Assembly (NCBI GenBank): GCA_035529575.1
Contig: DATKWM010000009.1
Location: forward strand, 150-64,149
DNA length: 64,000 nucleotides
From: Desulfatiglandales bacterium
GTDB taxonomy: Bacteria; Desulfobacterota; DSM-4660; Desulfatiglandales; B25-G16
Reading direction: 5' to 3'
The position numbers were made by a program, and so were the translations under genes. Positions 1 to 49,162 of the stretch are shown piece after piece. Below the pieces are notes generated by a model. The model was given only the letters and a program-made list of their open reading frames with translations. It was not told where the DNA came from and did not search any database. Every line of letters begins with the position of its first letter. Position 1 is the first letter of the stretch.

Positions 1-1
1 A

Positions 2-22126: not shown

Positions 22127-22492
22127 TAGAAAGTCTTTTGCGAGCGATTTTGGCCACTTTTGGAAAGTGATTCATGAAATGCTGAGCGTTAAAATCGCCA
22201 AACTGTTTGAGGAGCATGTGTATGTCTTTTTTTGTCAAATGCCCAAAACAAAGGCCCGTTCAGGGGCGTTTCAAAAAGGTGCATATGTACGGAGTAATAG
22301 AAGACAAGGGCATGTTGCTTTGCACCATTTTGAAACGGCCCACTACTGTGAATTTATAGGGCATTACAAAAAAAGACATACACATGCTCCTTCTCAGACT
22401 CTTAGGCCGAGTTTTTGGAATTTAGCGAAGCATTTCATGAATCCCAAAATGGGCATCATGAGCGAGTAAAAGGACTTTTTGCGAGACTATCA
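22127..22492 (+). mobile_element. about 366-bp quasi-palindromic repeat element, copy A (MITE-like or structured-RNA-like; no transposase)
   Basis: About 94% identical, by manual alignment, to the reverse complement of 48781-49162. Internal perfect inverted repeats 22211-22235/22366-22390 (25 bp) and 22169-22183/22429-22443 (15 bp). Confidence 0.7.
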
Positions 22493-22530
22493 ATCTTAGA
22501 ATCCATTAGAACCGTATGTTCAGGGCTCAA

Positions 22531-23574
22531 CTACGACTGCCCCATTATCTCCCCTAAACACATCAAGGTCGTATTAATATCCTCTGAGCTAATTCCGTAG
22601 TGCGTCACCAGCCGAAATCGAGATGGTCCGGTAGCCGATAGCTTGATTCCTTTCTTTTTAAGTTGCTTCATGAACACATCCATCGCAATTTTATCACTGA
22701 CAAGATCGAAATAAATAATATTCGTCTGTACCATTTCGAGGTTAATTGACAATCCAGGAATCTGAGCAATACCTTCGGCAAGGCAGCGGGCATTGATATG
22801 ATCCTCTGCCAGTCGATCAACCATCTGTTCCAGGGCGATAGTTCCTGGTGCAGCAATGACCCCTGTCTGGCGCATCCCACCGCCTAATATCTTACGTGTC
22901 CGTAGTGCTCGGGCAATGAATTCTTTCGAACCACACACAACTGAGCCAACTGGCGAGGAAAGCCCCTTTGACAAGCAAAAAATCAGGGAATCAACGCTTT
23001 GAGTTAATTCCTTGACATCTACTCCCAAGGCAACAGCGGCGTTGAATATCCGAGCACCATCAAGGTGTAATAGGAGGTCATACCGTCTTGCCAGTGCTGC
23101 GACTGATTCAATATACTGAGAAGTCAGAGCAGCTCCATTGCAGCGGTTATGGGTGTTCTCAAGGCAGATCAGCCTTGTGCGTGGAAAGTGTATGTTATCG
23201 CCACGAATGGCAGCCTCAATGTCCTCTAAACGTAATGTACCGTCAGGCTGATTGGGAATAATATGCGGCTGTATTCCACCCAATGCTGACATGCCACCAG
23301 CTTCGTTAATAAACATATGCGACGCATCACCCAGGATTACTTCTTCTCCCCTGGCGCAATGAGTGAGCATACATATCAGGTTACCCATTGTCCCGCTCGA
23401 GACCAGAAGCGCCGCTTCCTTTCCCATCTGTTCGGCGGCCATCTTCTCAAGGCGTTGAGTAGATGGATCCTCACCATATACATCATCACCCAGCTCTGCA
23501 TGATACATAGCCTTCCGCATCGGTTCCGTTGGCAACGTAACAGTGTCACTACGCAAATCAATGATTTTCATCAA
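22531..23574 (-). CDS. ltaE: low-specificity L-threonine aldolase (PLP, beta-eliminating lyase fold)
   Basis: DLRSDTVTLPT...GDDVYGEDPS...SGTMGN N-terminal signature. Confidence 0.85.
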   Translation of the reverse strand: MMKIIDLRSDTVTLPTEPMRKAMYHAELGDDVYGEDPSTQRLEKMAAEQMGKEAALLVSSGTMGNLICMLTHCARGEEVILGDASHMFINEAGGMSALGGIQPHIIPNQPDGTLRLEDIEAAIRGDNIHFPRTRLICLENTHNRCNGAALTSQYIESVAALARRYDLLLHLDGARIFNAAVALGVDVKELTQSVDSLIFCLSKGLSSPVGSVVCGSKEFIARALRTRKILGGGMRQTGVIAAPGTIALEQMVDRLAEDHINARCLAEGIAQIPGLSINLEMVQTNIIYFDLVSDKIAMDVFMKQLKKKGIKLSATGPSRFRLVTHYGISSEDINTTLMCLGEIMGQS

Positions 23575-24086
23575 TTTTCTCCCATCGAAGGTTACATGCG
23601 CACAATTCGCAGCATGAATGTAATATTCGTCTCATCATTTATAATAAAAGAATCCTGTTGTAAATAATACCGCCTGATGAACTATTTCGAGATTCTTTCT
23701 ATCACCTCTGAATAATTTTTTTTGCAATCACCGTGCAATTCCTTCAATCTCGTTAAATAATTCTCTTTCTTTTTAGAAATCTTTATGGCTTGAAGGTTAT
23801 CTATGACCACATGCACTGTGCCGTTTATCGCTCCCATGAGAAGTTCGCATGCCACTTGAAGGTGGGGTGACCATCTGTTGTGGAACCAGACAGTTCAGTT
23901 GATCAATCCATATTTTTATACCCTCAATAGTTACTATTTTATACACCGTGGCCCGTTTTTGTTCTCAAAAGAGATAGGAATCGGGAAGGCATCACACGAT
24001 AGAGCAGTAAGAATTGATACTGCTGATGGTGATCAGATCCTTTGTGAAAGATAGACAATGAAAGAACCTGATGAGCCAGAAAAGGC

Positions 24087-24509
24087 CTAAATTGACTCCA
24101 AAAGGGATGTAATCATCGCCGTCTGGTCTTGGTCGGCCATCTTGAATTTCACACCGACTCCCTGTGTGGTAGACCTGACAACTTCTCCAGTAACCTTGAT
24201 ATGTTTCTGGTAGTTTGGGAGCGGAAAAGTCAGTGAAACCTCCTGCCCAACAGTAAACGGCATATGGGTTTGTATAAACACTCCGCCAGTACTTATGTCT
24301 TGAATGAAATCCTTGTAGATATGATCCTGCGTAGAGTAATCTACGGCCATAAGGAAGGGTTTCCTTACATGTTTTCTTCTTCCTTCAAATGGCTTTTCCT
24401 CTAAGTCTTTCAGGAGGGTTCGCTGCTCGTCTTCGGGCATATTCTTAATCAATTCAATCAAACGGGCAGTAATTCTGGATTCATTCGATTGTATCTCGAA
24501 AGTAGTCAT
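24087..24509 (-). CDS. PilZ domain protein
   Basis: RRKHVR...DISTGGVFI PilZ motifs (RxxxR ... D/NxSxxG). Confidence 0.75.
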   Translation of the reverse strand: MTTFEIQSNESRITARLIELIKNMPEDEQRTLLKDLEEKPFEGRRKHVRKPFLMAVDYSTQDHIYKDFIQDISTGGVFIQTHMPFTVGQEVSLTFPLPNYQKHIKVTGEVVRSTTQGVGVKFKMADQDQTAMITSLLESI

Positions 24510-24756: not shown

Positions 24757-25524
24757 CTAAAGTGTTATACTAAAACCAGGTTCTGGAACCATCAGGTTCA
24801 GTGAGCCTGCCATCTGCGTGAATCTTTGCATCTCATCAATCACCTTGCTTCGCACCTTTCTTTGTATATGGACAAGGGCAAGAGTAGATGCGCCACATTG
24901 TTTCGCCATCTTAATCGATCCCGTAACGGTTCCGTGTCCTGGGATTTCGACCTCTAAAGAGAAAGCCTCATGGATGATAAGTTGGCTGCCCTTCGCAAGG
25001 GACATGCTTTCAGGTGTGGCCTTGCCATCACCACTGTAATAGATCGATTTTTCCTGTGCGTCTATTCTCAAGGCCAAATCTCTTTGGGAATGACTGGTAA
25101 CAGCAGCCTGAAAAATAAGGCCAAAAATCGTTACCTCCTTCTCTGGCTCCACCTCCCTGAAATTAAGTGGGAATCCTAATCTTTCATACATACCAGGATA
25201 GGCAAGATCAAGAGATGTGCGCATGAAGGTAGCTATGCCCTTTTGTCCTAAGAGTGTTAATGCCTTTTTGCGTCCTTCTTCCCAGAAGCGAACCAATAAT
25301 GCAGGAATCCCCAGGCAATGGTCACCGTGAAAATGGGAAATCCATATACCGTCAAGTATATCAGCATCTGGCTCTTCCCTCCAGAACTGAGGCGGAGCAG
25401 TAAAGCCGCAGTCAAGCAGCAATGTGACAGGGGTGGCTCCCACCCTATAGCGAATCAAAATAGATGTGTTTGGAAGCTTCTCGTCAAATGCCTCACCAAC
25501 ACCCAAAAAAATTACTTCGATCAT
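24757..25524 (-). CDS. MBL-fold metallo-hydrolase (RNase Z / BN-like)
   Basis: MIEVIFLGVGEAF...LLDCG...SHFHGDH. The ORF extends to 25542. Confidence 0.75.
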   Translation of the reverse strand: MIEVIFLGVGEAFDEKLPNTSILIRYRVGATPVTLLLDCGFTAPPQFWREEPDADILDGIWISHFHGDHCLGIPALLVRFWEEGRKKALTLLGQKGIATFMRTSLDLAYPGMYERLGFPLNFREVEPEKEVTIFGLIFQAAVTSHSQRDLALRIDAQEKSIYYSGDGKATPESMSLAKGSQLIIHEAFSLEVEIPGHGTVTGSIKMAKQCGASTLALVHIQRKVRSKVIDEMQRFTQMAGSLNLMVPEPGFSITL

Positions 25525-25868
25525 AACTCCTCCACATTTCAACCAATCTATTGTAAATGATTGGAGACATGACAGTTCAGTATTCCTATTGCCCTACCAG
25601 CAAATTACTATACTATACTTTTCCATTGCTACATCTTTCACACACATTACCTCTTCCTCTTTTTATGTGAGCTCTTTTGGTGAAAGTTGCAATCCCTGTC
25701 AAACTCTAAACCCATTATGAGATGTTTGTAAATATAAATTGCGTGCGAAACACTACCCTTGTTACAATCTTATGCAAAATCCCAAAAAAATAATTGAGCT
25801 TATCAATTGAAAAATGAACGGCAAATAGATACGATAAGGCTGTAACTCACAAAAAAAAGGTGAACACC

Positions 25869-26912
25869 ATGCCCGAATTACGACAAAATCCTATTACAAA
25901 AGACTGGGTAATAATAGCTCCGGAGCGACGCAAGCGGCCTAATCAATTTAGGCATCATACGGTCAAGGGAAAAATACCTAAACCGGATAGGGAAGAGAAA
26001 GATAAATGTCCATTTTGCCCGGGAAACGAAGAGATTTGTGGAAAAGCTGTTCTAGCATACTATGAAGAGCCTGGGGAGGATGTGCAATCCCAATGGACTC
26101 TGAGGGTAGTGCAAAATAAATTTCCTGCGTTAGTCGAAGGCAAGGAAACATCTCGAATCACAGAGGGCGCTGGAAATTTTTTTATAAAAATGAACGGAGT
26201 GGGCTACCATGAGGTAGTAATTGAACACCCGGAACATTTCCAGACGATTGCTACAATGCCATGTCAATCTGTTGAGCGTATACTTTCATCATACATAGAA
26301 CGATACCAGGTGCTCATACAGAAACCCAATGTAGAGTTAATAACTATATTTAGAAATAATGGTCCAGGAGCCGGCACATCATTACGGCATCCGCATTCCC
26401 AGATAATTGCCAGCCCAATCATTCCAATTCATATCCGGCATACGATAGAAGAGGCGGTGAGATATTTCGATACCATGGGCAGGTGTATATACTGCAACAT
26501 GATAGAGCAAGAAAAAATTTCAGGAAAAAGACTCATATCAGAAACTGAACATTTTATTGCGTTTGCTCCCTTTTCCTCACGAAGTCCTTTTGAAACGTGG
26601 ATTCTTCCAAAAAAACACAGGGCGTCATTTGCAAAAACCTCTGCTATTGAAAAGAAAGATTTAGCAAGGATATTAATTGATATCTTACAAAGATTATATT
26701 ACGGGCTTGATAATCCGGATTATAATTACATGATTCATTCGGCACCATATCAAGAGGATCCTGCGGACTATTATCATTGGCATCTCCAAATACTTCCAAA
26801 ACTCTATAAAGTGGCGGGATTTGAATTGGGCTCTGGTATATATCTAAACAGTGCGAGCCCTGAAGAAAATGCGAAATACTTAAAGGAAATAAAGCCGGAT
26901 GTTTTAGAATAA
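25869..26912 (+). CDS. galT: galactose-1-phosphate uridylyltransferase family (HIT superfamily) nucleotidyltransferase
   Basis: CPFCPGNE zinc motif and HPHSQI active-site His motif. A GTG at 25860 is also possible. Confidence 0.8.
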   Translation: MPELRQNPITKDWVIIAPERRKRPNQFRHHTVKGKIPKPDREEKDKCPFCPGNEEICGKAVLAYYEEPGEDVQSQWTLRVVQNKFPALVEGKETSRITEGAGNFFIKMNGVGYHEVVIEHPEHFQTIATMPCQSVERILSSYIERYQVLIQKPNVELITIFRNNGPGAGTSLRHPHSQIIASPIIPIHIRHTIEEAVRYFDTMGRCIYCNMIEQEKISGKRLISETEHFIAFAPFSSRSPFETWILPKKHRASFAKTSAIEKKDLARILIDILQRLYYGLDNPDYNYMIHSAPYQEDPADYYHWHLQILPKLYKVAGFELGSGIYLNSASPEENAKYLKEIKPDVLE

Positions 26913-26985
26913 TATAAAGAAACTTTCCTGATCGCTGTCTCAATAATTTATGAACGCTGAGCGATACGGTGAATTTTCAAAGAAT
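26690..26985 (+). repeat. galT 3'-end segment duplicated in direct orientation at 43098-43385
   Basis: 26714-26880 versus 43124-43290 shows 1 mismatch in 167 nt. Homology decays gradually on both flanks. Confidence 0.75.
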
Positions 26986-27067: not shown

Positions 27068-27949
27068 TTAGCGTTGAATCTTGGGATTGAGTTCTTCTCT
27101 AAGCCAGTCGGCAAAGAGATTGATCCCTACCACCAACAGGACCAAGGCGGCGCCTGGAAAGACCACGAGCCACCACATGCCTGCATATATATAGTCTTTC
27201 CCGATAGAGATCATCATTCCCAGGGATGGTTCTGTGAGAGGGACCCCCACACCCAGGAAGCTCAGGGTCGCCTCCAGCATGATGACTACTGCCAGATCCA
27301 CGGCCATGACTACAAAAATGGGGGGGATCGCATTGGGGAGCAGGTGCCTCAAGAGAAGCCTGAAATCTTGAGCCCCAGTTGCCTTTGCAGCCATGATATA
27401 GACCTCCTCTTTGACCTCTAAAACGCTGCCTCGCATGGTTCGTGCATACCTGACCCAGTCTGCGATGCAGATAGCGATGATGACCACCAGCACGCTACGT
27501 TGTTTAAACAGCCCCAACATGAGTAAGGCCATCAGGGTGGTTGAAAAGGAGAAGAAGGTGTCGGCCAACCGCATGATCACCGAATCCAGGTGTCCTCCAT
27601 AATAACCGGCCAGCAAACCCATGGTGATGCCAAAGGTGCCGGCGATTATGAGCACTCCGAATCCCACGGTCAGGGAAGTCCTGCATCCATAAAGGATGGT
27701 GCTGAATATGCCCCGCCCCTGATCGTCGGTTCCCAAAAGAAACGGGGGCTCCCCCCCCTTCATCCAGAGAGGGGGTTTCAGAAAATGTTCAAGGCTCACC
27801 TTCTTCAGGTCATAGGGGTTCTGGGGCGCAATCAATGGCGCAAAAAGGGTAGCAAAAATAAAGACCACAAGGATAAAGCTTCCTACAAGGGCGGACGGGT
27901 CACATAGGTAGTTGTAGAGTAGCTTCGATTTAATGAGCCGTTTATTCAT
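27068..27949 (-). CDS. peptide/nickel ABC transporter permease (DppC/OppC type)
   Basis: 293 aa with 6 TM segments. EAA-like loop AKATGAQDFRLLLRHLLPN. Confidence 0.85.
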   Translation of the reverse strand: MNKRLIKSKLLYNYLCDPSALVGSFILVVFIFATLFAPLIAPQNPYDLKKVSLEHFLKPPLWMKGGEPPFLLGTDDQGRGIFSTILYGCRTSLTVGFGVLIIAGTFGITMGLLAGYYGGHLDSVIMRLADTFFSFSTTLMALLMLGLFKQRSVLVVIIAICIADWVRYARTMRGSVLEVKEEVYIMAAKATGAQDFRLLLRHLLPNAIPPIFVVMAVDLAVVIMLEATLSFLGVGVPLTEPSLGMMISIGKDYIYAGMWWLVVFPGAALVLLVVGINLFADWLREELNPKIQR

Positions 27950-28907
27950 ATCGAATCTTGGGGTTCAGATAGGCGTAGAGGACATCCACGATGATATTGA
28001 GGCTCAGGATGATGAGTGCAGCCAGCATGATGTAGGTAACAATAACAGGTTGATCTGCCTCATAGATGGAAATCAGCAAGAGGTTTCCCATCCCCGGCCA
28101 TTGGAATATCGTTTCTGTGACAATGGAAAAGGCGATTAATTCTCCAAATTGAAGACCTGTCATGGTCACCACCGGTATCAAGGCATTTCTCAAGGCATGC
28201 TTGAAGATCACCTTTCTGGGTGGAAGCCCCTTGGACCAGGCCGTCTTGATATACTCTTCAGTCAACACCTCTCGCATGCCCGCCCGGGTCAGACGCAGCA
28301 GCACTGCAAGCTGGTACATGCCCAGTGTAAAAGCAGGAAGAATCAAATGCGTAATCCCGCTCCAGGTCAGAAGGCCGGTCCGCCAGAACCCAATAGTAAC
28401 CGTCTCTCCCCGACCAAAAGGCGGGAGAACTCCCAGGTAGACCGCAAAGACCATGATGAGCAGGATCCCGGTGAGAAAAGTGGGGATGGAGATGTTGAAG
28501 AGGGAACCCGCCATGATGAATCGGTTCCTGAGGGCGTAGGGCTTCAGGGACACCAGAACGCCCAGCACCACACCCAGCACAAAGGCGATGAACACGGCCG
28601 ATGTGGCGAGCTCCACGGTAGCAGGGAAGCGTTCCATGATGAGGCCGAAGGCCGGCACACGGCTCACAAAAGACTTTCCGAAGTTGCCCTGGGCGGCATT
28701 GGCGATAAAGCGTGTATATTGTATGTAAAAGGGCCTATCGAGGCCAAAGGCCTTCCTCACCATCTCCCGCTCCTGAAAGGTAGCATACCTTCCAGCAAGC
28801 GATACAACAGGATCTCCTGAATAGCGGAAGATGATGAAGCAGATAAAGGAGACGGCCAGGAGAACGACCACGCCTTGAATCAGCCTTCGTGTAATGTAAG
28901 TGACCAT
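27942..28907 (-). CDS. peptide/nickel ABC transporter permease (DppB/OppB type)
   Basis: MVTYITRRLIQGVVVLLAVSFICFIIF N-terminus is typical of DppB. TAWSKGLPPRKVIFKHALRNA. Confidence 0.85.
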   Translation of the reverse strand: MVTYITRRLIQGVVVLLAVSFICFIIFRYSGDPVVSLAGRYATFQEREMVRKAFGLDRPFYIQYTRFIANAAQGNFGKSFVSRVPAFGLIMERFPATVELATSAVFIAFVLGVVLGVLVSLKPYALRNRFIMAGSLFNISIPTFLTGILLIMVFAVYLGVLPPFGRGETVTIGFWRTGLLTWSGITHLILPAFTLGMYQLAVLLRLTRAGMREVLTEEYIKTAWSKGLPPRKVIFKHALRNALIPVVTMTGLQFGELIAFSIVTETIFQWPGMGNLLLISIYEADQPVIVTYIMLAALIILSLNIIVDVLYAYLNPKIRYE

Positions 28908-28963
28908 ATCTGTGAAAGGGAGGGCCGGAAATACATCCGGCCCTCATTTCTCTGCAAGGGTTA

Positions 28964-30490
28964 TTATTTGGAGATCTCCTTGAAAACCATCCACCGGTCT
29001 GGGCGGGGCTGGAATTTAATGCCTTTACCCTTCTGAATCGCATAGATATCCTGTTGGTAGTGCAGGGGGATCCATACGATCTTATCTACCATGGCCATCT
29101 TATTGAGGTCTTGAAGAACCGTTTTGCGCTTCTCCCGGTCAACGATACTGCCGGTGGGCCCGAGAAGGGTGTCTATACTGGGATCGCTGTAATTGGTTCC
29201 GTTTAACTCTCCAAAGCCCTCACCGCGGGTATGGGCCAGCTTGAAATATGTCCGGCCCATATCAAAGGTGCCGTCAAACCACCCGATGAGATAGAATTCG
29301 AGCTCACCCCGGGCGACCTGCGGAAAAAAGATGGACTTGGGCTTTACATCCAGACTCACCTTGATGCCCACCTTAGCCAGATACCTTGCCACGGCCTCGG
29401 CAATCTTTTCGTCCTGTACATACCGATCATTGGGGCCTGATAAGGTAATTTCAAACCCTTTCGTGTACCCTGCTTCCTTCAGGAGCTTTCTGGCCATTTC
29501 CGGGTTGTAGGAGAGACGCTCTATCTCCGGATTATACCCGATGGTAGGGGGATCCGGAATCTGCGCTGCAGGTGCGGCATGGCCTCTCATGATTTTTTCG
29601 ATAATCTCATCCTCATTGATGGCCATGTACATGGCCTTGCGAACACGAATGTCCTCCATGGGGCTCCCCGGCTTGTTGCCCAAGGCCAGAAAAATGGATC
29701 TTCGGGCAGGGCGGGTGATCACCTCGAGTTTCGGGTTTTGTAGAACCTTTTCATACAACTCCACCGGCACGCCGGAGACAAGCTCAGCCTGCCCGGAAAC
29801 CAGCGCGGCAAAACGGGTGGAAGACTCCGTAATGGGCATCAACTCCACGTTCTTAATGGGCGGGGGCCCTTCCCAATAGTCCTCATTGGCCACCATCTTG
29901 ACATACGACCCCTTGACCCATTCAACTAACTTATAGGCACCTGTTCCAATGGGCTTGACCTCTACCTCCCCCGGATCTCTGGCATCTGTCGACTCCTTAT
30001 CCATCATATAGATCTGATGGAGATTGTTCGCGAACCAGGGAATAGGGTCCTTGGTTTTGATGACAACAGTATAGTCATCAACGATATCGATCGATGCAAT
30101 GCTTTTTCCGGTGTTGATGAACTCCGATACGTCCGGGTTGGATAGCCTCTCGAAGGAAAACTTCACATCCTTGGCGGTAAAAGGGTTGCCATTGTGAAAC
30201 CTTACCCCTTTTCTAAGGTATAACTTCCAGGTCAAAAGATCAGGATGCTCGTACCGCACGGCCAATGCCGGGAAGAGGTTTCCCTCGGGCGCCTTGCGCT
30301 GAAGAAGCCCCTCAAAAAAGTTGGCCATTATCGAGAGGTTTGCATCCGCATCGGAGCCGTGGGGGTTCATTGTCCTGGGAGGAGTGTCCACAGCGACCAC
30401 AATGGATGAAGCTCCAATGGCTTGCCCTGTCAAAATGAGCAAGGTTCCTATAAAGATGCCCAAGAATAATAAAATAGAAATTCTTTTCAT
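28964..30490 (-). CDS. ABC transporter substrate-binding protein, family 5 (oligo/dipeptide type)
   Basis: 508 aa with a signal peptide. SBP_bac_5-like sequence throughout. Confidence 0.85.
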   Translation of the reverse strand: MKRISILLFLGIFIGTLLILTGQAIGASSIVVAVDTPPRTMNPHGSDADANLSIMANFFEGLLQRKAPEGNLFPALAVRYEHPDLLTWKLYLRKGVRFHNGNPFTAKDVKFSFERLSNPDVSEFINTGKSIASIDIVDDYTVVIKTKDPIPWFANNLHQIYMMDKESTDARDPGEVEVKPIGTGAYKLVEWVKGSYVKMVANEDYWEGPPPIKNVELMPITESSTRFAALVSGQAELVSGVPVELYEKVLQNPKLEVITRPARRSIFLALGNKPGSPMEDIRVRKAMYMAINEDEIIEKIMRGHAAPAAQIPDPPTIGYNPEIERLSYNPEMARKLLKEAGYTKGFEITLSGPNDRYVQDEKIAEAVARYLAKVGIKVSLDVKPKSIFFPQVARGELEFYLIGWFDGTFDMGRTYFKLAHTRGEGFGELNGTNYSDPSIDTLLGPTGSIVDREKRKTVLQDLNKMAMVDKIVWIPLHYQQDIYAIQKGKGIKFQPRPDRWMVFKEISK

Positions 30491-30784
30491 TTTTGTTCCC
30501 TCCCTTTTTAATTAATAGTTTCTTTATAGGTTTACCCCGCTAGAATGCCCCGCTATTTATGGCCTGAATGCTATAGGTAAAAATTACATTCCTTATTTAT
30601 AGCGGGGTCTAATGACCCACCCTTCTAATGGGGTTTGCTATCAATCATCACCTCCTTTCATGTCAAGTAGTCTCAGGCCTACGTTAGCCCAAATAATGAG
30701 CATCTCATTGGATCCTAACAATAAATGAAGATATAGTTTGAGACTAAAGGCATTGTTAAAGAGTAAATTAAATCAATATAAAAA

Positions 30785-36567: not shown

Positions 36568-36585
36568 ACGCCTTGGTGTAAGAGA

Positions 36586-39536: not shown

Positions 39537-39539
39537 TAG

Positions 39540-40190: not shown

Positions 40191-40192
40191 CC

Positions 40193-40912
40193 TTACCTCC
40201 CGATCATACCAGGTATTTTGAGCCGTGACTCCAGAATACCCATCAACCCGACAACCGCTAAACCCAAGGCCAGGTAAATCAAACAGGCGCCGGTGGTCGA
40301 TTCCAATCCATGGAAGGTCTCGGAATCGATCTTGTAGCTCATAAATGTCGTCTCCAACACACCAATTGTCATAGCAATGGAGGAGTTCTTAAAGATGGTC
40401 AGGAACTCCGTGGTTAATGGAGGGATAATGATCCGTAAGGCATAGGGAATAATCACATAGCGGTACATCTGTGGATGCGTTAGACCGGTAGACAGGCTGG
40501 CTTGATAGTGATCCCGAGAGATGGATGAAAAGCCAGCACGGGTATGCTCGGCCACCCGGGATGCCGTGTACATTCCGAGGGCGATGATGGCAACATAGTA
40601 GTTGAGGCCTATGATGGCATTAATACTTTTTTGAAGGGATGCCCCAAAGACCATGGGCCCGGCGTAATACCAGAAGAAGAGCTGGACCATGAAGGGGATA
40701 TTTCGGAATAGCTCTACATAAGCGCCCCCCAGGAATCTGAGCCATCTCCAGGGGGAGATTCGCATCGTGCCAATGAGAACCCCTAAAGAAAGGGCGATAA
40801 TCCAACCAATGAGTCCCATTTTAATGGTGACCCAGATCCCCTGGACCAGATACATCCCGTATGGGTTTCTCCACAGGACACTCCAGTCAAATTCATATGC
40901 TAAACCCATCAC
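40193..40912 (-). CDS. polar amino-acid ABC transporter permease
   Basis: 239 aa, HisQ/GltJ-type membrane protein. Confidence 0.85.
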   Translation of the reverse strand: MMGLAYEFDWSVLWRNPYGMYLVQGIWVTIKMGLIGWIIALSLGVLIGTMRISPWRWLRFLGGAYVELFRNIPFMVQLFFWYYAGPMVFGASLQKSINAIIGLNYYVAIIALGMYTASRVAEHTRAGFSSISRDHYQASLSTGLTHPQMYRYVIIPYALRIIIPPLTTEFLTIFKNSSIAMTIGVLETTFMSYKIDSETFHGLESTTGACLIYLALGLAVVGLMGILESRLKIPGMIGR

Positions 40913-40959
40913 AATACCCCGAAGAAATATGGAAGAGGGGCGTTAACGCCCCTCTATTC

Positions 40960-41859
40960 TTAATGTTTCTTCCACCAATCCTCCGCTTGTGGATAGCAGA
41001 TCAATTGCAGGTAATCCTCATAGGCCTTGGACATCGGAATCGGAACAACCCCTTTAGGGCCCATCCACTTATCGTACATTTCAAAGAACTTGCCCGTTTT
41101 TATCGACCATACAATGGTATTGTTGATGAAGTCCCTGATATCGGAATTGCCTTCCCTGCACATATAGCCGTAAGGTTCGTAGGCGATAGCGAAATCAGCA
41201 GTTTTCCAGTTTTCAGGGTGCGGGGCCTTCATCCTCAAACCTTCCAGTAAACTCCGATCCGTTGAGTATGCATCGACTTTTCCGCTTTTCAAGGCAAGAA
41301 ATCCTTGAGGATGGGTTTCCACGACTACGATATCCTTGGGTTTATATTTCCCTGCTGCAACCTGATCTTCTATAGCCTTCAAGTTAGTAGTTCCCCGGGC
41401 CGCCCCCAGCCTTTTTCCGTTGAGGTCGTCAATCGTCTTGATATCGCTATCTTTGGGAATGAGAAAGGTCGTCTCCGAGACAAAGAAGATGTAGCTGAAA
41501 TCAACTACTTCTTCACGCTTTTGAGTATAGGTTGTAGAACCCATCTCCACATCAACCGTCGCATTGGCCACCATGGGGATACGGGTTTTAGGAGTAACGG
41601 TAAAAGGTACTATCTCTATCTTTTTGCCGAAGTGTTCGGAGAGCTTGTCAACAAGAAGGTACGTCATATCCACGGAAAACCCAACGTGTTTTCCAACCTT
41701 AGGATCGATGAAGGCGAAGGGTATTGAACCCTCCCTCAGCCCCACACGAATCTTTCCCGTTTTGTTAATGCGGTCCATGGTTTCATCTGCCAGCGCTACA
41801 CTGCCAAAGAGTGTCATGGCAAAGATGAAGCAAAAGGCAAAGATAAAAGATTTTTTCAT
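40960..41859 (-). CDS. polar amino-acid (Glu/Asp-type) ABC substrate-binding protein
   Basis: Signal peptide. SBP_bac_3-like sequence GKIRVGLREGSIPFAF... Confidence 0.85.
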   Translation of the reverse strand: MKKSFIFAFCFIFAMTLFGSVALADETMDRINKTGKIRVGLREGSIPFAFIDPKVGKHVGFSVDMTYLLVDKLSEHFGKKIEIVPFTVTPKTRIPMVANATVDVEMGSTTYTQKREEVVDFSYIFFVSETTFLIPKDSDIKTIDDLNGKRLGAARGTTNLKAIEDQVAAGKYKPKDIVVVETHPQGFLALKSGKVDAYSTDRSLLEGLRMKAPHPENWKTADFAIAYEPYGYMCREGNSDIRDFINNTIVWSIKTGKFFEMYDKWMGPKGVVPIPMSKAYEDYLQLICYPQAEDWWKKH

Positions 41860-42147
41860 AAGACTACCCCCCTTTTATTATTTTATAATAATAACCATAG
41901 CCCAGTTTTTATTTTGAATTTTATCACCCCCCCTTGTCTAAATTTTTGGGTTCACTATAGGACTAAGGAAAGGCTATGTCAACTCCATTTCATAAAGCAA
42001 CAGACGTGATAACATAAGAATCTTATTAAATTTTTTTGGTTTCCTGAAAAATCAACAAGACATTACATAAGATGGTTGAAAGAGGCTGTAGTTTGATATA
42101 TCCTCGTGATTGACCATGGAAAGAATAAGAGAGAAGGAGCTAAAGTC

Positions 42148-42876
42148 ATGAAAGAAGGAATTATCGGTATATTAGGCGGAATGGGCCCAGAGGCGACCTC
42201 ATGCCTTTTCCAAAAGATCATCAAGAACACGAAAGCGATGAGAGATCAGGATCACCTCAGGATACTTATTGATAATAATCCAAAAATCCCTGACCGCACT
42301 CCTGCTATAGTGGATCGAGGAGAAAATCCTGTTCCGATGATGATTGAGGTTGCAAAAAACCTCAAAAAAGCGGGTGCTGACTTTATTGTAATCCCTTGCG
42401 TTTCAGCACATTATTTCATCAATCAATTAAGAGAAGGAATTACCATTCCAATTATCTCCATTCTTGATGAAGTAGCAAGAGAACTAGAAAAGTACCTTCC
42501 AGATATAAAACGAGTAGGCCTCATCGCAACTACAGGGACCATCAAGGCTGGCCTTTTTCAAGATAGATTAAGGGAAATAGGGGTCGAAGTTTTGGTCCCC
42601 TTCCCCAAAGAACAGGAGAATCTCGTCATGTCTGCAATTTATGGAGAATCAGGAATCAAGGCAGGACTTATTTCCTTGAAAAATAAAGAAAAAATTTTGC
42701 AAACCTCAAAGGCATTGATTGAAAAAGGTGCCCAGGGGATCATAGGGGGCTGTACTGAGGTGCCTCTGGTCGTAAACCAAACTGATATCGAGGTCCCCTT
42801 TTTTGATTCCCTCAATATCCTTGCCCTTTCTGCAATCCGTATAGCGAAAAGTAATACCCGCGAATACAGACGATAA
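42148..42876 (+). CDS. aspartate racemase
   Basis: GAAGGAG RBS before ATG 42148. GILGGMGPEAT and GCTEVPL two-Cys racemase motifs. Confidence 0.85.
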   Translation: MKEGIIGILGGMGPEATSCLFQKIIKNTKAMRDQDHLRILIDNNPKIPDRTPAIVDRGENPVPMMIEVAKNLKKAGADFIVIPCVSAHYFINQLREGITIPIISILDEVARELEKYLPDIKRVGLIATTGTIKAGLFQDRLREIGVEVLVPFPKEQENLVMSAIYGESGIKAGLISLKNKEKILQTSKALIEKGAQGIIGGCTEVPLVVNQTDIEVPFFDSLNILALSAIRIAKSNTREYRR

Positions 42877-43097
42877 AATCCGGATTTTTATGTTCTTCCA
42901 CCTCTCTTCTGATCCAGCGCTAAAATGTCCTTTTTCATAATGGGGATATTTTTTATTAGGCTAACGCTGTATTTATGGAAAGGACGGATTGATACTGAAA
43001 GAACCGATTTATGTAAACATGAAAAATTAAGGGTCTTCGTTTGACTCTTATTCCTTTTTTGGCAAGTGTCAAACGGAGACACGACCACTTTATATTA

Positions 43098-43322
43098 AAA
43101 AGATTATATCATAGGTTTGATGATCCGGATTATAATTACATGATTCATTCGGCACCATATCAAGAGGATCCTGCGGACTATTATCATTGGCATCTCCAAA
43201 TACTTCCAAAACTCTATAAAGTGGCGGGATTTGAATTGGGCTCCGGTATATATCTAAACAGTGCGAGCCCTGAAGAAAATGCGAAATACTTGAAGGAAGT
43301 AACAACGGATGTTTCAGAATAA
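43098..43322 (+). pseudogene. orphan 3' fragment of a galT-family gene (last ~70 codons only)
   Basis: Encodes DDPDYNYMIHSAPYQEDPADYYHWHLQILPKLYKVAGFELGSGIYLNSASPEENAKYLKE, near-identical to the GalT C-terminus. No N-terminal catalytic part is present upstream. Confidence 0.75.
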
Positions 43323-43656
43323 TATGATGAAAATGTACTGACTGCTCATTAATTCATTAACGCTAAGCGAGGTGTAAATTTTTAAGGGCTTTTTTGGGCT
43401 TTTTTGCTTGACACACTAGTGCCGTTCTCTTAAGCTACAAAAACCAAAAAAATATTTCTATTACTTATTTCAATCCCTTTCTTAATCATATTCACGCTTA
43501 TGGCTATATCTTGCACTTTGATTGAGCAAAAAGATTTGCCTAACCACGAAATCCACCCTTCCCCAAAGCAAAAGAAGCTTAGAAAGTACAGCCAAATTGG
43601 TAAAACACTAAGCTTTGTATTTTTTTTAACCACATCCAAAAGATAAGGAGGTTATC

Positions 43657-44934
43657 ATGAAAAAAAAAGTTTTCTGTACCATTATTACCCTAATTGTCTC
43701 AACAGTATTAATAGGGGCTTTTGGGGTGAACAGTGTCCAGGCAGCAAAAAAAGGTAAACCCATAGTTGTCGGAGCACCTGTTCCACGAGCGAGTGCATAT
43801 GGGCAAAATGGCGAACGAGGCATGATCTTGGCCGCAGAGGAAATTAATGCTGCAGGCGGGGTTAATGTAAGCGGCGTAATGCGTCCCCTTAAACTCGAGA
43901 TTATTGATACCCGCGACGAGGAACCCGGTGTGCCTACCAGCGAAGTTCTCCTGGCAATAGAGAAATTGATTCTACAGAAAAAGTCTGATGTTATTGTTGG
44001 TGGCCCCTGCATGTCAGAGTGCGGGATGGCAGCTATGGATCTGTACGCTCGATATAAAATTGTAGATATTGTATCCATTGGCTGCTATACGCCCAGCTGG
44101 GATCAGAAGGTAGGCAGCAACCCCGAAAAGTATAAATATTCTTTCAGGGCAAGCGGCAGTGTTAAGGCATATATAAAAGAAGGGCTCGATTTGCTCAAGC
44201 AAATCAACAAGAACTTCGGATTCAATAAGATGTTCGTTTCAATAGACGACAGTCTAATGTGCCGTAAGGCAGCAGGAATTGTGGAAAAGCTTGCTGTAAA
44301 AACTGGCTGGGAAGTCGTAGGCAGCGATAAGCACCCTATTGGAACAACTGATTATTCCATGGCGTTGAGTGATTGTAAAAAATCAGGGGCACAAGTTTTA
44401 TTCATGTGGGCCTATTCACCGGAAACCTCTATTCTCTTAAAGCAGTGGGCTGATATGGAAGTGCCAGCGCTACCACTCGGTTTCATTGGTGCTGCCGAGG
44501 ACCCCGGTTTCTGGAATGTGACAAAAGGGAAAGGTGCTTATACAGTGGTTACCCTCTCGGAGACTGGTAATGTTCCCAGCAATTTAATGCCACAGACCAT
44601 GAAATTCTATAATGCCTTTGAGAAAAGATGGAAAGTGGCTCCCCGGAGCACCGGATGTGTAAGTGCGTATGAAGCACTGTATGTATTGAAGGATGCTGTT
44701 GAGAGAGCCGGAACTCTTAAAAATGATGCCCTGATAGCTTCACTTGAGCAGACGGATCTTCCAGCCGTACGAGGCACGATCAGATTTGATAAAAATCATC
44801 AGATCATCTATGGCTATGATCCAAAGACAAGTGTATTAGGCTGCTGGGTGCAATGGCAGGATGGAAAAAGGGTATCTATCTTTCCAGAGGCAGCTGCTAC
44901 TGGTACGGTAAAGATGCCCCCATGGCTGAAGTAA
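43657..44934 (+). CDS. branched-chain amino-acid (Liv-type) ABC substrate-binding protein
   Basis: AAGGAGG RBS, signal peptide, Peripla_BP_6-like sequence. Confidence 0.85.
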   Translation: MKKKVFCTIITLIVSTVLIGAFGVNSVQAAKKGKPIVVGAPVPRASAYGQNGERGMILAAEEINAAGGVNVSGVMRPLKLEIIDTRDEEPGVPTSEVLLAIEKLILQKKSDVIVGGPCMSECGMAAMDLYARYKIVDIVSIGCYTPSWDQKVGSNPEKYKYSFRASGSVKAYIKEGLDLLKQINKNFGFNKMFVSIDDSLMCRKAAGIVEKLAVKTGWEVVGSDKHPIGTTDYSMALSDCKKSGAQVLFMWAYSPETSILLKQWADMEVPALPLGFIGAAEDPGFWNVTKGKGAYTVVTLSETGNVPSNLMPQTMKFYNAFEKRWKVAPRSTGCVSAYEALYVLKDAVERAGTLKNDALIASLEQTDLPAVRGTIRFDKNHQIIYGYDPKTSVLGCWVQWQDGKRVSIFPEAAATGTVKMPPWLK

Positions 44935-45015
44935 TATTAATCAGTGATACCCATGTAAGCCCCTTGCTCTTGCGAGGGGCTTATTTCAATTTTAAATAGT
45001 TAAGTAGCAGAAAGT

Positions 45016-45900
45016 ATGGACATAGTAATATACGGTACTGTTAATAGCGTTATCTTTGCACTGATAGCTGTTGGTTTTACATTGGTCTATGGGGTGAGTA
45101 GAATACCAAATTTTGCCCATGGTTCCATATATGTGCTGGTCGGTTTCTTGACCTGGAGTTTCGTGAATGATCTCAAAATAAATTATGCACTTGCTATCCT
45201 TGTATCCCTAACTATAGCGGCAGTTCTTGGTTTTATTATATATCGCCTTATACTCATACGCTTAAGGGGCATGGCAACATCTGAGATTATTGCCTCATTC
45301 GCTGTGAGCTTAATTATATTAGAAGGCCTGCGGATGCAGGGTATTGCTGGGTTTAAAGGCTTTATAGGCCCCTTTTATGTTCTACAACCATTTATAGAAG
45401 GCAAACTGAACATATTCGGGGTGTTTGTGGACTATCAACGGCTTATAATTATAGGGGGAGGATTTACAGTAGTAACATTTTTGTGGTTCTTTACCCACCA
45501 TACTAAGATGGGCCTATCCTTAAGGGCTATAGCCCAAGATGAACGTGCCGCTATGATGCTTGGCGTAAACTCAGATAAAACAGCAATGATATCTCTCTCT
45601 ATTGGTTCTGCATTGGCTGGTCTGGCTGCCGTTATTATCCTTCCCCTTGGTAGTATTACTGTTGAGGCAGGATACAAGGTTTTGATATACGCCCTTGCAG
45701 TATGTATCATCGGCGGTCTTGGAAGTTGGGCAGGTGCAGTATTGGCATCCTTTGTAATTGGCTTTGCTATGAAAATCAGCACAGCCCTGTTCGGAGCAGT
45801 ATGGGAGTCAGTAGTACTGGTCGGAACCATTATCTTTATACTATTATTTAGGCCTTCAGGACTCTTGGGGAAACAGAAAGAGCTTGAGGAGAGGGTTTAA
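45016..45900 (+). CDS. livH: branched-chain amino-acid ABC permease
   Basis: 294 aa LivH-type membrane protein (NFAHGSIYVLVGF). Confidence 0.85.
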   Translation: MDIVIYGTVNSVIFALIAVGFTLVYGVSRIPNFAHGSIYVLVGFLTWSFVNDLKINYALAILVSLTIAAVLGFIIYRLILIRLRGMATSEIIASFAVSLIILEGLRMQGIAGFKGFIGPFYVLQPFIEGKLNIFGVFVDYQRLIIIGGGFTVVTFLWFFTHHTKMGLSLRAIAQDERAAMMLGVNSDKTAMISLSIGSALAGLAAVIILPLGSITVEAGYKVLIYALAVCIIGGLGSWAGAVLASFVIGFAMKISTALFGAVWESVVLVGTIIFILLFRPSGLLGKQKELEERV

Positions 45901-45902
45901 GA

Positions 45903-46913
45903 TTGGTTGGCGAGGAGAAGCGCAAAAAAAGGTTAGATAGAAGTATAAAAGTACGAACAGAGGGGCTCTATGCCCTATCGTCATGGGGTGAGATGGCATA
46001 TCTGATCATGCCACGACTTGTCTTAATCCTTGGATTACTTTTTCTTCCCCTGATTTTAGATATGTACTGGCAAAGGGTCCTCTGCTCAGCTGGCATCTAT
46101 GCATTGTTGGCGCTAGGTTTTGATTTTCTGGCCGAATATGTTGGTCTGGTCTGTTTAGGAGGGGCCTTTTTTATCGGAGCCGGTGGATACATCTCCGGGC
46201 TCTTGAATGCATATCTTGGCTGGTCACCGCTGCTGTCTATCCCAATCGCTACAATTGCCGGAGCTGTGATTAGCACACTGATTCTGCTGCCCTGCCTCCG
46301 ACTCAGGGGCATCTATTTCGCTATTGTGAGTTTTATGTTTCCCTTATTTTCGGTCTATATTATCATCGCGCTTAATGTTTTCGGAAGTACAGAGGGTATC
46401 AGTGCCCTGGCCAACCTGCCTAATATCTGGGTTGAACAGTACCTTATCCTTGGGGCTATTATCTTGTCACTATTTGCATTGAGAAGATTAGTCCATGAAG
46501 ATATTGGTGTCATTTTTCAGAGCATAAAGGACAATGACCAGGCCGTTAAGGCCTCTGGTATTAATATAACAGTTTACAAGGCTAAGGCAGTTTTCATTGC
46601 ATCATTAATCGGTTGTTTTGGCGGGGCTTACCTGAGCCACCTTTACGGGTGGTTAGGTTTATCGCTTTTTGCCATGGATTTTTCCATACTTCCCATTGCC
46701 GCCTCTGTCATGGGAGGAATGGGATCTTTAGTAGGGCCAGTATTAGGTGCATTCATACTAACCCCCCTTTCAGAGGCACTGCGTGGTTTTGGGCAACTCA
46801 GGGTAGTCCTCTATTGCCTTATATTAATAGGTTTTATGGTATATAAACCTGAAGGATTAATGAATTACCTTGAGCGCAAGTATCATCAATTCGAGCATTG
46901 GGAAAAAGTGTAA
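45903..46913 (+). CDS. livM: branched-chain amino-acid ABC permease
   Basis: 336 aa LivM-type membrane protein. Start is uncertain (TTG 45903). Confidence 0.8.
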   Translation: MVGEEKRKKRLDRSIKVRTEGLYALSSWGEMAYLIMPRLVLILGLLFLPLILDMYWQRVLCSAGIYALLALGFDFLAEYVGLVCLGGAFFIGAGGYISGLLNAYLGWSPLLSIPIATIAGAVISTLILLPCLRLRGIYFAIVSFMFPLFSVYIIIALNVFGSTEGISALANLPNIWVEQYLILGAIILSLFALRRLVHEDIGVIFQSIKDNDQAVKASGINITVYKAKAVFIASLIGCFGGAYLSHLYGWLGLSLFAMDFSILPIAASVMGGMGSLVGPVLGAFILTPLSEALRGFGQLRVVLYCLILIGFMVYKPEGLMNYLERKYHQFEHWEKV

Positions 46914-46915
46914 CC

Positions 46916-47671
46916 ATGCATGATGAATCTATTCTTCGCGTAGAAAATATTCGTAAGGCATTTGGTGGGGTTCAAGCTGTAAAGGATGTGAGCTTTTCTT
47001 TATTGAAAGGAGAAATTCTCGGAGTCATCGGACCAAACGGCTCGGGTAAAACAACACTTGTTAACCTTATCACCGGCTTTGTGCGAGCCGATTCCGGAAA
47101 TGTTTTTTTTAAAAAAAGGAATATCATAGGTATACCACCCCATAAAATCGTTAATTTTGGACTTACGAGGACGTTTCAGATAATGAGACCCTATCACAGT
47201 TTGTCTGCATTTAAAAACCTCATTGTTCCTTTGAATTCACCCCGTGTACGACGAACCAGAAGTGGGAAGCTCGGCGATATAGATGCAGTTGCCATAGATA
47301 TGTTAGAGGAAGTCGGTTTTGAACGTGATGCTCGTGTTCCGTATAAAGCAGCCGGCACCCTCCCCCTTGGGTACCTGAAACGTCTTGAGCTCGCCAGATG
47401 CATTGCCCTCAGGCCTGACGTCATTATATGCGACGAAATTTTCTCGGGGCTTAGTATGTCTGAAATAACATCCCTGATCCCCTTCTTGGAAAAATTACAG
47501 ATGGAAGGGACCACGATGATGATGATTGAGCATCGACTGAGAGAACTCTTTAAGCTGGCAAACAGACTGATTGTAATGAATTTTGGTGAAAAAATTGCTG
47601 AAGGAATCCCTGTGGAGGTTATTGAGAATCAAGAGGTCAAAGAGGCTTACCTCGGAACGGCGACATCATGA
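46916..47671 (+). CDS. livG: branched-chain amino-acid ABC ATP-binding protein
   Basis: Walker [11 protein letters not shown]-terminal EAYLG. The ORF extends to TTG 46898. Confidence 0.85.
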
Positions 47672-48423
47672 TGCCAATATTAGAAATCAAAAATCTCATG
47701 GTATTTTATGAAAATGCCATAGCCATAAATAATGTTCATATAACATGTGAAAAGAAAGAAATTACAGGAGTCTTTGGGGCCAATAGTGCTGGTAAATCTA
47801 CACTCATGTATACCATTTCCGGAATAATTTTAGATGTAAAGAAAAAAGAAAAAATGAGAGGTGGTGAGAGAATAACAGTGCTTGGAAGCATATACTATGA
47901 TGGGGTGGATATCGTCAATACGGAGACCAGCGAAAGGGCAAAGCAGGGGATTATCCTTTGTCCAGAGAGACGTAGAATTTTTCAGGAAAGTAATGTATTG
48001 GAGAATTTGAAAATAGGCGGCATTTTAGCAACAAGGGCAGAAGCCAAGAAAACACTTGACTATGTCTTTACAATTTTTCCACCTTTAAAAGAACTAAAAA
48101 AAAGAGAGGGAGGTTTTCTGAGCGGTGGTGAACAGCAGATGCTTGCTATTGGGAGGGCCTTGATGGCTCAGCCTAAGTTGCTGTTGCTGGATGAACCGCT
48201 CCTTGGACTTAGCCCAAAAATAGAGGAAATGCTTGCCAGAGTAGTGAAAGATATCAATCTGGAAATGGGGATTACCATATTGATTTCAGAGCAGTATGCC
48301 AGACCAATCTTGCCTATTATACACCACGGTTATGTGCTCGAAAACGGTGGCTCAGTTTTAGAAGGTACCTCCCAGGAGCTTATGGATAACCCGGATGTAA
48401 AATCCGCTTATTTTGGGCTTTAG
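47668..48423 (+). CDS. livF: branched-chain amino-acid ABC ATP-binding protein
   Basis: Walker A GANSAGKST, signature LSGGEQQMLAIGR, C-terminal KSAYFG. Confidence 0.85.
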   Translation: MMPILEIKNLMVFYENAIAINNVHITCEKKEITGVFGANSAGKSTLMYTISGIILDVKKKEKMRGGERITVLGSIYYDGVDIVNTETSERAKQGIILCPERRRIFQESNVLENLKIGGILATRAEAKKTLDYVFTIFPPLKELKKREGGFLSGGEQQMLAIGRALMAQPKLLLLDEPLLGLSPKIEEMLARVVKDINLEMGITILISEQYARPILPIIHHGYVLENGGSVLEGTSQELMDNPDVKSAYFGL

Positions 48424-48780
48424 GTGCTATTAGTTGTCCGCTGGCCACATCGTTCACATTTCTGCAATAAACTTCTATCGCGTGATAATTCTTACATATA
48501 AAACGATTGTAAGCTGTATTGCAAAGTCTTATAGATTCGATCCGGGTAATGACTCACAGCAACAGTCCCAGGCTCTGCATAGCCCTCCGACACAATCTCT
48601 TTAAAAAAGCCCTTTCAATGATTTCCGCCCACATTGACGTACTCCAGTTAGTAGCCGTATGATCACAAAGAAACTATTGAATGAATCGAGAGCAAATCTG
48701 AGACCTTGTCACGGAAATAATGCTTTCCGCCTGACAATTGTATGTATACAAAAAGATTTAGTTATCTTACAATAATGATG

Positions 48781-49162
48781 TTCTTGCAAAAAGTCCTTTT
48801 ACTTGCTCATGATGCCCATTTTGGGATTCATGAAATGCTTCGCTCAATTCCAAAAACTTGGCCTAAGGCTCTGAGAAGGAGCATATGTATGTCTTTTTTT
48901 GTAATGCCCTATACATTCACAGTAATGGGTCGTTTCAAAATGGTGCAAAGCAATATGCCCTTGTCTTCTATTGCTCCGTACATCTGCACCTTTTTGAAAC
49001 GCCCCTGAACGGGCCTCTGTTTTGGGCATTTGACAAAAAAAGACATACATATGCTCCTCAAACAGTTCGGCGATTTTAATCCGCCTGAGGCGGATTAACG
49101 CTCAGCATTTTATGAATCTTTTTCCAAAAGTGGCCAAAATCGCTCGCAAAAGACTTTTTACA
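48781..49162 (-). mobile_element. about 382-bp quasi-palindromic repeat element, copy B (inverted relative to copy A, carries a 19-nt hairpin insertion)
   Basis: Its reverse complement aligns end-to-end with 22127-22492. The internal 25-bp inverted repeat is conserved with a paired G:C to A:T change. Confidence 0.7.
49076..49098. repeat. small GC hairpin TTAA-TCCGCC-tga-GGCGGA-TTAA, an indel relative to copy A
   Basis: Copy A reads gcgTTAAaatcgcc at the homologous site (22187-22200). Copy B has TCCGCCTCAGGCGGA plus a second TTAA inserted. Confidence 0.55.

Follow-up and report, generated by a model that had tools for sequence, protein, structure and literature searches.

Palindromic MITE-like insertions and a duplicated galT 3' end at a gene gain and loss hotspot of an uncultured Desulfatiglandales bacterium

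A 64-kb stretch of DNA from an uncultured sediment Desulfatiglandales genome (contig DATKWM010000009.1, hereafter the window) carries genes for the uptake and turnover of peptides and amino acids that are enclosed by two pairs of repeats. The outer, inverted pair consists of two copies, A and B, of a palindromic element resembling a MITE (miniature transposable element with inverted repeats), while the inner, direct pair is a duplication of the 3' end of galT. The two kinds of repeat are probably unrelated and lie near a recombination-prone variable spot, copies A and B being independent MITE-like insertions and the galT duplication a recombination scar. The pattern is ordinary bacterial hotspot plasticity plus an undescribed MITE family. 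A striking arrangement of nested repeats can thus come from two unrelated common processes, and the comparison of metagenome contigs at the population level separates such processes without a cultured strain.

The window was compared with about 25 contigs 88–96% identical to it, obtained by a metagenome scan with GalT as query; these and further compared loci are given as numbers preceded by L. The nearest named relatives are metagenome-assembled genomes (MAGs) of Deltaproteobacteria/Desulfobacteraceae from sediments, and LivK is identical to a protein of 'MAG TPA: Desulfatiglandales bacterium'. Genes were assigned by NCBIfam and Pfam profile matches for open reading frames (ORFs) of at least 100 aa between 20 and 51.7 kb. 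A repeat finder recovered exactly those two pairs, one inverted and one direct, that a sequence-only reading of the window had described around the peptide and amino-acid genes. The repeat architecture is real and no assembly artefact: both of its halves recur at 99.95–100% identity in assemblies made independently from other samples (L146, L147 and L148 for window 14–34.5 kb; L141 and L142 for 42–55 kb).

Anatomy and distribution of the palindromic element

The two copies were aligned by the repeat finder over a long pair of inverted arms (22189–22497 and 48771–49079; 309 nt, 94% complementary) and a short one (22108–22192 and 49095–49179; 85 nt, 88%). Copy A is identical to the reverse complement of copy B in 349 of 394 columns, compared to 265 of 419 columns when both are aligned directly; the inverted orientation assigned to them earlier is therefore meaningful, although each copy is itself an imperfect palindrome. 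The longest exact run common to both is 40 nt. Folded as DNA, copy A reaches -94 kcal/mol (z = -13.5), and its ends, GACAAACTCGTAAAAAGTC... and ...GACTTTTTGCGAGA.CATC, are mutually complementary and represent terminal inverted repeats. The full-length hairpin is kept in eight copies of the element; nearly all pairs were invariant in a covariation analysis over these eight, which shows a conserved palindrome only. Target duplications of 6 bp were read directly on both sides of copy A (AATCTT, 22111–22116 and 22492–22497) and copy B (AATAAT, 48771–48776 and 49171–49176), and further ones, ACTATT (L128) and ACTTTT (L099), flank copies in other MAGs. Copy A is located between the convergent asd and Thr aldolase genes, copy B in the leader of orf219. 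The sole ORF in copy A (22167–22469, 100 aa) was not matched by any NCBIfam or Pfam family.

Rfam at gathering thresholds, applied to the whole window and thus to both copies, returned only a tRNA, and the element was also unmatched in a lenient Rfam scan (E <= 0.1) of 42800–49400, which includes copy B only, and of L017 and L010. Copy A did not match plasmid and phage collections. Promoter and terminator scans around both repeat pairs gave counts at the level of shuffled sequences and were not used. The element family appears to be undescribed.

Copy B contains a GC-rich hairpin insert of 19 nt (49083–49101), TTAATCCGCCTCAGGCGGA, which is absent from copy A and present in the copy of L087. 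Since this insert is common to B and L087 but not A, copy B is no direct copy of A. Other nested inserts were seen in L116 and L128 (approximately 40–50 nt) and, as an additional one of 24 nt, in L087. These nested, GC-rich hairpins seem to make up a distinct class of very small palindromic insertions.

Both insertion sites are polymorphic. Site A is empty in L019 and L038, where a single AAGCTT stands in place of the two AATCTT that flank the 375-nt insert of the window, while it is occupied in L001, L014, L020 and L021. An internally deleted copy, of which the outer 80 and 79 nt are left, is found at site A of L017. Site B is empty in L010, which reads straight through, the target sequence being single, where the window has AATAAT on each side of a 394-nt insert, and copy B is present in L141, L142 and L156. 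L001, L014, L017, L020 and L021 have copy A but lack copy B as well as the cargo genes. These empty and occupied sites were observed directly. Copies A and B would accordingly represent independent insertions of a non-autonomous, non-coding MITE-like element of approximately 375–395 bp with long inverted arms and 6-bp target duplications, presumably moved in trans by a DDE transposase.

The claim that the palindromic copies bracket a 26-kb unit was not supported. Besides their own target duplications and separate empty sites, 4.4 kb of the bracketed DNA, from copy A to the end of galT, are core DNA in all relatives; the genes for Thr aldolase, a PilZ protein and an MBL-fold hydrolase are found there in all close relatives at 87–96% nucleotide identity, whether the cargo is present or not. 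Since copy A occurs without B or cargo and 4.4 kb of core DNA lie between copy A and the cargo, A and B delimit no unit. In all relatives the next gene after asd is that for Thr aldolase, and in none do the genes at 49 kb take this place. The inverted isomer that had been considered was absent from all of the approximately 20 related or same-strain contigs, which have one orientation at both junctions.

For the wider distribution of the element, one genome per species was scanned with the inner motif AAAAAAAGACMTACMYATGCTCC. Five further copies of the subfamily were found in two other Desulfobacteraceae MAGs (four in CAZSWT01, one in CAYTDY01). A sister subfamily is present on approximately 42 contigs of the close-relative MAG B33_G16 (QMLT01), one contig of which is 90–93% identical to window 1–10524. 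Members of the sister subfamily are shorter and their outer arms (GTAACTTCTCAATAAGTTGGGG...) unrelated, yet the inner 23-nt core motif is common to both subfamilies. Its copies are located at contig ends in approximately 37 cases, indicating a high-copy repeat that breaks the B33_G16 assembly; this abundance is a property of the sister subfamily and is not transferable to that of the window.

In L001 and L020, the copies at site A combine a centre of the sister subfamily with arms of the window type. The 183-nt centre itself (22209–22391 and 48877–49058 in the window) is found in both orientations relative to the outer arms, oriented as in copies A and B in L099 and L119 and flipped in L021, L014, L116, L128 and L087. 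It is bounded by a 23–27-nt inverted motif (GGAGCATGTGTATGTCTTTTTTTGT / ACAAAAAAAGACATACACATGCTCC), which suggests a flip-flop inversion of the centre within the element.

The intergenic region between the Thr aldolase and PilZ genes (window 23594–23903) varies among the relatives. A fragment of the right end of the element lies in this spacer in L019 (2929–2985), L011 (619–649), L014 (1320–1350) and L021 (5128–5164) and is absent from the window, in whose spacer no inverted repeat was found either.

The galT–orf219 interval and the duplicated galT end

The variable spot is flanked by galT on the left and orf219 on the right. About ten relatives have orf219 at 0.25–0.45 kb from galT and then DNA corresponding to window 51785 onward (both genes are direct neighbours in L001, L007, L008, L016, L017, L019, L020, L030 and L035), whereas approximately 22.4 kb of variable DNA lie between them in the window. 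L017, from a 113-kb contig, is for instance 92–96% identical to the window over 14454–61100 but lacks both 26.98–49.3 kb and the acyl-CoA ligase gene. L021 contains a block of approximately 10 kb, comprising, after galT, the peptide transporter genes (dpp), amidohydrolase, dipeptidase and racemase, followed by 207 nt and orf219; the orphan galT fragment described below, the liv operon and copy B are missing. In L009, galT is followed by dppCBA as in the window, which represents the left junction of the block. A different insert of 1.4 kb is located between galT and orf219 in L010 and L012. The protein encoded by it (326 aa; L010 2376–3356) has two zinc-ribbon-like motifs of the form CxxC...CxxC and, in addition, a long repeat rich in Glu, Lys and Arg (EEEERAEALRKQK...). 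Among contigs that are 88–96% identical, at least six contents of the interval were thus observed directly.

In eight relatives (L001, L002, L008, L011, L013, L014, L015 and L020) the last codons of galT differ (...GGAAGCCTGA) and are followed by another downstream spacer, which places the left edge of the variable spot within the end of the gene. Identity to the window is incongruent from gene to gene, L019 reaching 96% in Thr aldolase compared to 88% in galT, which indicates recombination and would be expected if this is frequent. The cargo of the galT–orf219 interval differs among close relatives, and the 22.4 kb of the window would have been built in layers.

The earlier suggestion that the segment was assembled by successive events is borne out by relatives without cargo, with the approximately 10-kb version or with other inserts, and by layers of different origin; the order of the events we infer from these comparisons. 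A block of approximately 10 kb with the peptide ATP-binding cassette (ABC) transporter, amidohydrolase, isoaspartyl dipeptidase and racemase would be one layer. The 6.8-kb inner insert, the exchange of dpp for a higher-GC version, the liv operon and MITE copy B would be further ones. The dpp operon has a GC content of 0.49–0.52 in the window compared to 0.42 in the syntenic region of L021 (8500–14116), at 72–77% identity, while dpp of L009 is the higher-GC version (GC 0.51, 88.7% identity to the window). It looks as if the operon was replaced in place by a foreign higher-GC version common to the window and L009. The stretch with the liv operon is absent from relatives of the L017 type. In the window liv has taken the place of most of the orf219 leader, and copy B interrupts this leader. 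The description of the bracketed DNA as almost entirely amino-acid and peptide genes fits, with the exception of the first 4.4 kb, which are conserved core and not cargo. Likewise, the racemase scores above the cut-off of the aspartate racemase model (asp_race), as had been proposed, but among the NCBIfam models it fits cysteate racemase CuyB best (235 bits, cut-off 190); its substrate is uncertain.

The direct duplication of the galT 3' end, described as flanking 16.4 kb, was recovered as well and could be extended (Table 1). The aligned main part of the two copies (26681–26936 and 43091–43346) matches at 92% with an in-register offset of 16410. Fourteen mismatches are found over 26681–26912, and the longest exact run is 121 nt (26713–26833, equal to 43123–43243). 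The centre of the repeat (26713–26881) has a single mismatch in 169 nt compared to 80–86% identity in the arms, pointing to gene conversion or later allelic exchange. Downstream of copy 1 the sequence is of the type found in the block-bearing L009 and L021 and in L010/L012. Downstream of copy 2, the orphan galT fragment, it is of the type of the block-less L017 and L035 up to 43414, and this homology stops right after TTGACAC, the -35-like box upstream of orf219 in L017 and L035. The 3' parts of the two copies follow the same division, that of copy 1 being of the block-bearing and that of the orphan of the block-less type. The left junction of the orphan is abrupt and non-homologous and preceded by a 138-nt filler without a match elsewhere among the compared sequences. 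The filler bears a resemblance, too weak to claim, to the promoter region of orf219 and may be what is left of it in degenerate form. An identical left junction is present in L145, which belongs to a lineage of 93% identity, so that the duplication is older than the split from that lineage.

Taken from sequence comparison, the 16.4-kb block was most likely added by a recombination of the one-ended or single-crossover kind, of which the duplication is the mark. In it, a galT–liv haplotype would have been joined out of register to a block-bearing one, either by homologous recombination on one side and illegitimate recombination on the other, or by single-crossover integration of a circularised fragment. 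In this event the old galT end together with its downstream DNA would have been displaced by 16.4 kb, and the scar would now be open to RecA-type recombination by which the block is lost or replaced. Homology-facilitated illegitimate recombination (HFIR) and single-crossover integration of circularised DNA are documented (PMC3240628), as are orphaned 3' regions left by such displacement (PMC5361080).

A candidate for the block-less product is L149 (JGI 3300031578, 7562 nt), found via a PilZ look-up, which contains PilZ, MBL, galT, one repeat and livKHM. Its single repeat is of the copy-1 type up to 26834 and of the copy-2 type from 26882. On the galT side, 7 of 3285 positions of L149 deviate from the window, and 7 positions do so in 44023–47546, whereas 59 differences accumulate within 43299–44022; elsewhere L149 is 99.8% identical to the window. 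Its hybrid GalT was found on no other contig in the look-up. The diverged 0.7-kb tract fits a replacement of the block by a block-less allele of another lineage and a mosaic assembly alike, and the chances that the galT–liv form of L149 is real are about even. The proposal that the direct repeats could remove the 16.4 kb is plausible and partly supported by this junction, with the switch (26835–26881) in the predicted interval, on a single contig in which a false join across the 121-nt exact repeat is possible.

Alternative explanations and related systems

An arrangement in which the inverted copies delimit an invertible or mobile 26-kb module with an excisable 16.4-kb interior, forming a nested switch, is unlikely. 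The repeats are long and similar enough for RecA (40 nt exact in A and B, 121 nt in the direct pair), and L149 has the predicted galT–liv junction. Each palindromic copy, however, has a separate target duplication and empty site, and copy A occurs without copy B and cargo. Moreover, 4.4 kb of the bracket are core DNA, and the orientation at both junctions is the same in every related or same-strain contig. As also noted in the sequence-only reading, there is no recombinase inside the bracket among the ORFs of at least 100 aa. More conceivable, albeit still not probable, is that the block-less galT–liv form is ancestral and that the window arose from it by Campbell-type integration, through a single crossover, of a circle of 16.4 kb that included a fragment of the galT 3' end; both repeats would then be hybrid products of this integration, with excision as its exact reversal. 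The repeat of L149, copy-1 type at its 5' and copy-2 type at its 3' side, is as expected of an unoccupied site, the single-nucleotide polymorphisms (SNPs; C.T) at the 5' end of copy 2 match the block-bearing L009 and L021, and integration of this kind is documented (PMC3240628). The 59 differences of L149 in 43299–44022, by contrast, are more in keeping with an allelic replacement at a later time or with a mosaic assembly than with an ancestor that stayed unchanged, the orphan is already present in the more distant L145, and the junction is seen on one contig only.

The duplicated gene end flanking foreign-looking cargo of partly higher GC also resembles a site-specific genomic island at the galT 3' end with a replacement gene end, the repeats being attachment sites; islands that target tRNA genes carry such a replacement. 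This is very improbable for galT. There is no integrase or excisionase in or beside the block, the ORFs of at least 100 aa being metabolic, transport-related or unmatched. In contrast to a short attachment core, the repeat measures approximately 300 nt, of which approximately 70 nt are non-coding and diverged, L021 has a shorter block at the same place without the duplication, and the 138-nt filler sits at the left junction of the orphan. That the repeats are metagenome assembly artefacts, by chimeric joins or collapsed strains, is a negligible prospect. Several contigs do break within repeats (L143 and L144 start at 43262, L150 to L153 end at 26742–26881, L148 and L150 end in copy A), but L146, L147 and L148 span copy A, galT, copy 1 and dpp, and L141 and L142 span racemase, orphan, liv, copy B and orf219, all at 99.95–100% and from different assemblers and samples. 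The orphan arrangement is also present in the 93% lineage of L145.

Several points weigh against independent insertions combined with a galT-end scar as the explanation preferred here. A search of the 157 compared loci for the ends of the element returned no larger, transposase-encoding partner, and we infer mobility in trans. The number of elements is known for the 64-kb window only (n = 2), which allows no statistics on clustering. The outgroups L003 and L004 have other galT neighbours and do not polarise whether the empty or the filled interval is ancestral. Further, the filler at the left junction of the orphan is unexplained, the contrast between the near-identical centre of the direct repeat and its diverged arms calls for one more step (gene conversion or a subsequent allelic replacement), and the 5' SNPs of both repeat copies fit one-ended illegitimate recombination and a single crossover alike. 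L149, finally, is a single short-read contig, and an exact repeat of 121 nt may mislead assemblers.

Bacterial MITEs with hairpin potential over the whole length are described as Correia/NEMIS in Neisseria, ERIC/IRU in enterobacteria and MITEAba12 (PMC3184786, PMC2229807, PMC6382973). The present element resembles MITEs in its small size, lack of coding capacity, terminal inverted repeats, target duplication of fixed length and intergenic, probably dispersed copies, in its insertion polymorphism among close relatives and in the occurrence of internally deleted derivatives. It differs in its length of 375–395 nt, which exceeds that of most MITEs, with arms of approximately 150 nt, in a 23–27-nt inner inverted motif common to a second subfamily with unrelated outer arms, and in a centre found in both orientations; a parent insertion sequence was not found among the 157 loci, nor was a match in Rfam or in plasmid and phage collections. 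As in a composite transposon, two copies of one mobile-element family flank accessory genes. Here, however, the flanking copies have no transposase, their outer flanks differ (AATCTT and AATAAT), they are polymorphic independently of each other, and the enclosed DNA is partly core and not present or absent as a unit. An invertible DNA segment differs in that all related and same-strain contigs have one orientation here and a recombinase is missing.

The galT–orf219 interval corresponds to gene gain and loss hotspots known as flexible genomic islets in its conserved flanks (galT on one side, orf219 and the LemA gene on the other), its at least six contents, the lack of dedicated mobility genes and a mosaic identity that points to homologous recombination. 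It differs from them in that the left boundary lies in the last galT codons and the displaced old end is kept in this genome. In the latter respect it would be similar to the orphan 3' regions formed by HFIR in Rhs and type VI secretion system effector-immunity arrays (PMC5361080, PMC3240628), where incoming DNA is likewise anchored in a conserved upstream gene and the resident 3' end is pushed downstream with its adjacent DNA and kept as an orphan without an integrase. In contrast to these, the cargo is metabolic instead of toxin-immunity genes, there is one displaced copy and no array, and the mechanism is deduced from sequence only.

A bolder possibility, which we regard as rather unlikely, is that the 16.4-kb block is an integrase-free cassette repeatedly gained and lost in the natural population, the route being RecA-dependent recombination across the 121–169-nt galT repeat or allelic replacement from block-less neighbours. 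Separately, and at the same level of likelihood, the palindromic element may represent an undescribed MITE superfamily, in which the conserved inner inverted motif would be a module common to the subfamilies and drive the flip-flop of the centre. If true, the cassette would be an on/off polymorphism for the scavenging of aged peptides in sediment, an idea put forward because the block carries isoaspartyl dipeptidase, racemase and transporters for peptides and amino acids. The comparison documents an undescribed MITE family in sediment Desulfatiglandales/Desulfobacteraceae and a hotspot at which near-identical genomes differ in whether they carry a coherent set of peptide, isoaspartyl and amino-acid uptake genes. 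The gene set may bear on the use of aged protein by subsurface sulfate reducers. The value of these data is modest, and they open no long-standing question.

Genes of the window and minor observations

The features of the region are compiled in Table 1. Upstream of copy A, cobB and asd are located, and the conserved right flank continues beyond orf219 with the LemA gene. An exact protein look-up with the 350-aa, GTG-start ORF of galT gave no match; the called gene has 347 aa.

Table 1. Positions of repeats, genes and gene clusters (window coordinates unless a locus is named).
Feature	Position	Strand	Remarks
MITE-like palindromic element, copy A	22117–22491	+	375 nt
Thr aldolase	22531–23574	-	NCBIfam/Pfam
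PilZ protein	24087–24509	-	NCBIfam/Pfam
MBL-fold hydrolase	24757–25542	-	NCBIfam/Pfam
galT	25869–26912	+	347 aa, identical to HUV58604.1 (Desulfatiglandales MAG); left flank
Direct repeat copy 1	26681–26985	+	last 77 codons of live galT and approximately 70 nt downstream
Peptide ABC transporter operon (dppC, B, A, F, D-like)	27068–32756	-
M20 amidohydrolase	32957–34138	-	95% identical to L021
Isoaspartyl dipeptidase	34156–35403	-	95% identical to L021
Inner insert	35390–42147	mixed	6.8 kb; absent from L021, 292 nt in its place
Truncated thrC	35444–36100	-	C-terminal 218 aa only
RidA	36586–36966	-
Intact thrC	37475–38704	+
Polar amino-acid ABC transporter	38811–41859	-
Asp/Glu-family amino-acid racemase	42148–42876	+	90.6% identical to L021
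Filler	42953–43090		138 nt; between end of L021 homology and orphan galT fragment
Direct repeat copy 2	43091–43385	+	orphan galT 3' fragment and downstream DNA
livKHMGF-type branched-chain amino-acid ABC operon	43657–48423	+	in extra stretch 43415 to approximately 48680
MITE-like element, copy B	48777–49170	-	394 nt, inverted relative to A
orf219	49283–49942	+	conserved, no family match; right flank
Acyl-CoA ligase	50007–51662	-	absent from all relative contigs reading past orf219
Element centre in other loci	L021 3733–3915; L014 36–124; L116 4189–4370; L128 6152–6334; L087 5447–5651
orf219 leader region in relatives	L017 11100–11350; L019 6240–6475; L016; L008; L021 18090–18255

A promoter-like box, TTGACACGCACGAAAAATTAAGGCAATATA, is conserved among the relatives upstream of orf219, together with a leader of approximately 190 nt. 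The leader had no Rfam match in 42800–49400, L017 and L010 (E <= 0.1). In the distant Desulfobacteraceae genome L157 (CP070700.1, 10001–16757), liv is followed after 33 nt by a convergent acyl-CoA ligase gene, while in the window liv and the ligase gene are split by 1.6 kb holding copy B and orf219. L141, which is 99.985% identical to the window from 41990 on, starts with 141 nt unlike window 41849–41989 or any other compared sequence; these may represent a strain-level structural variant or an assembly-graph branch upstream of the racemase gene. Within the inner insert, the truncated and the intact thrC are located 1.4 kb apart on opposite strands, and a 50-nt inverted repeat between them (35783–35832 and 38283–38332) represents residual homology of the two genes.

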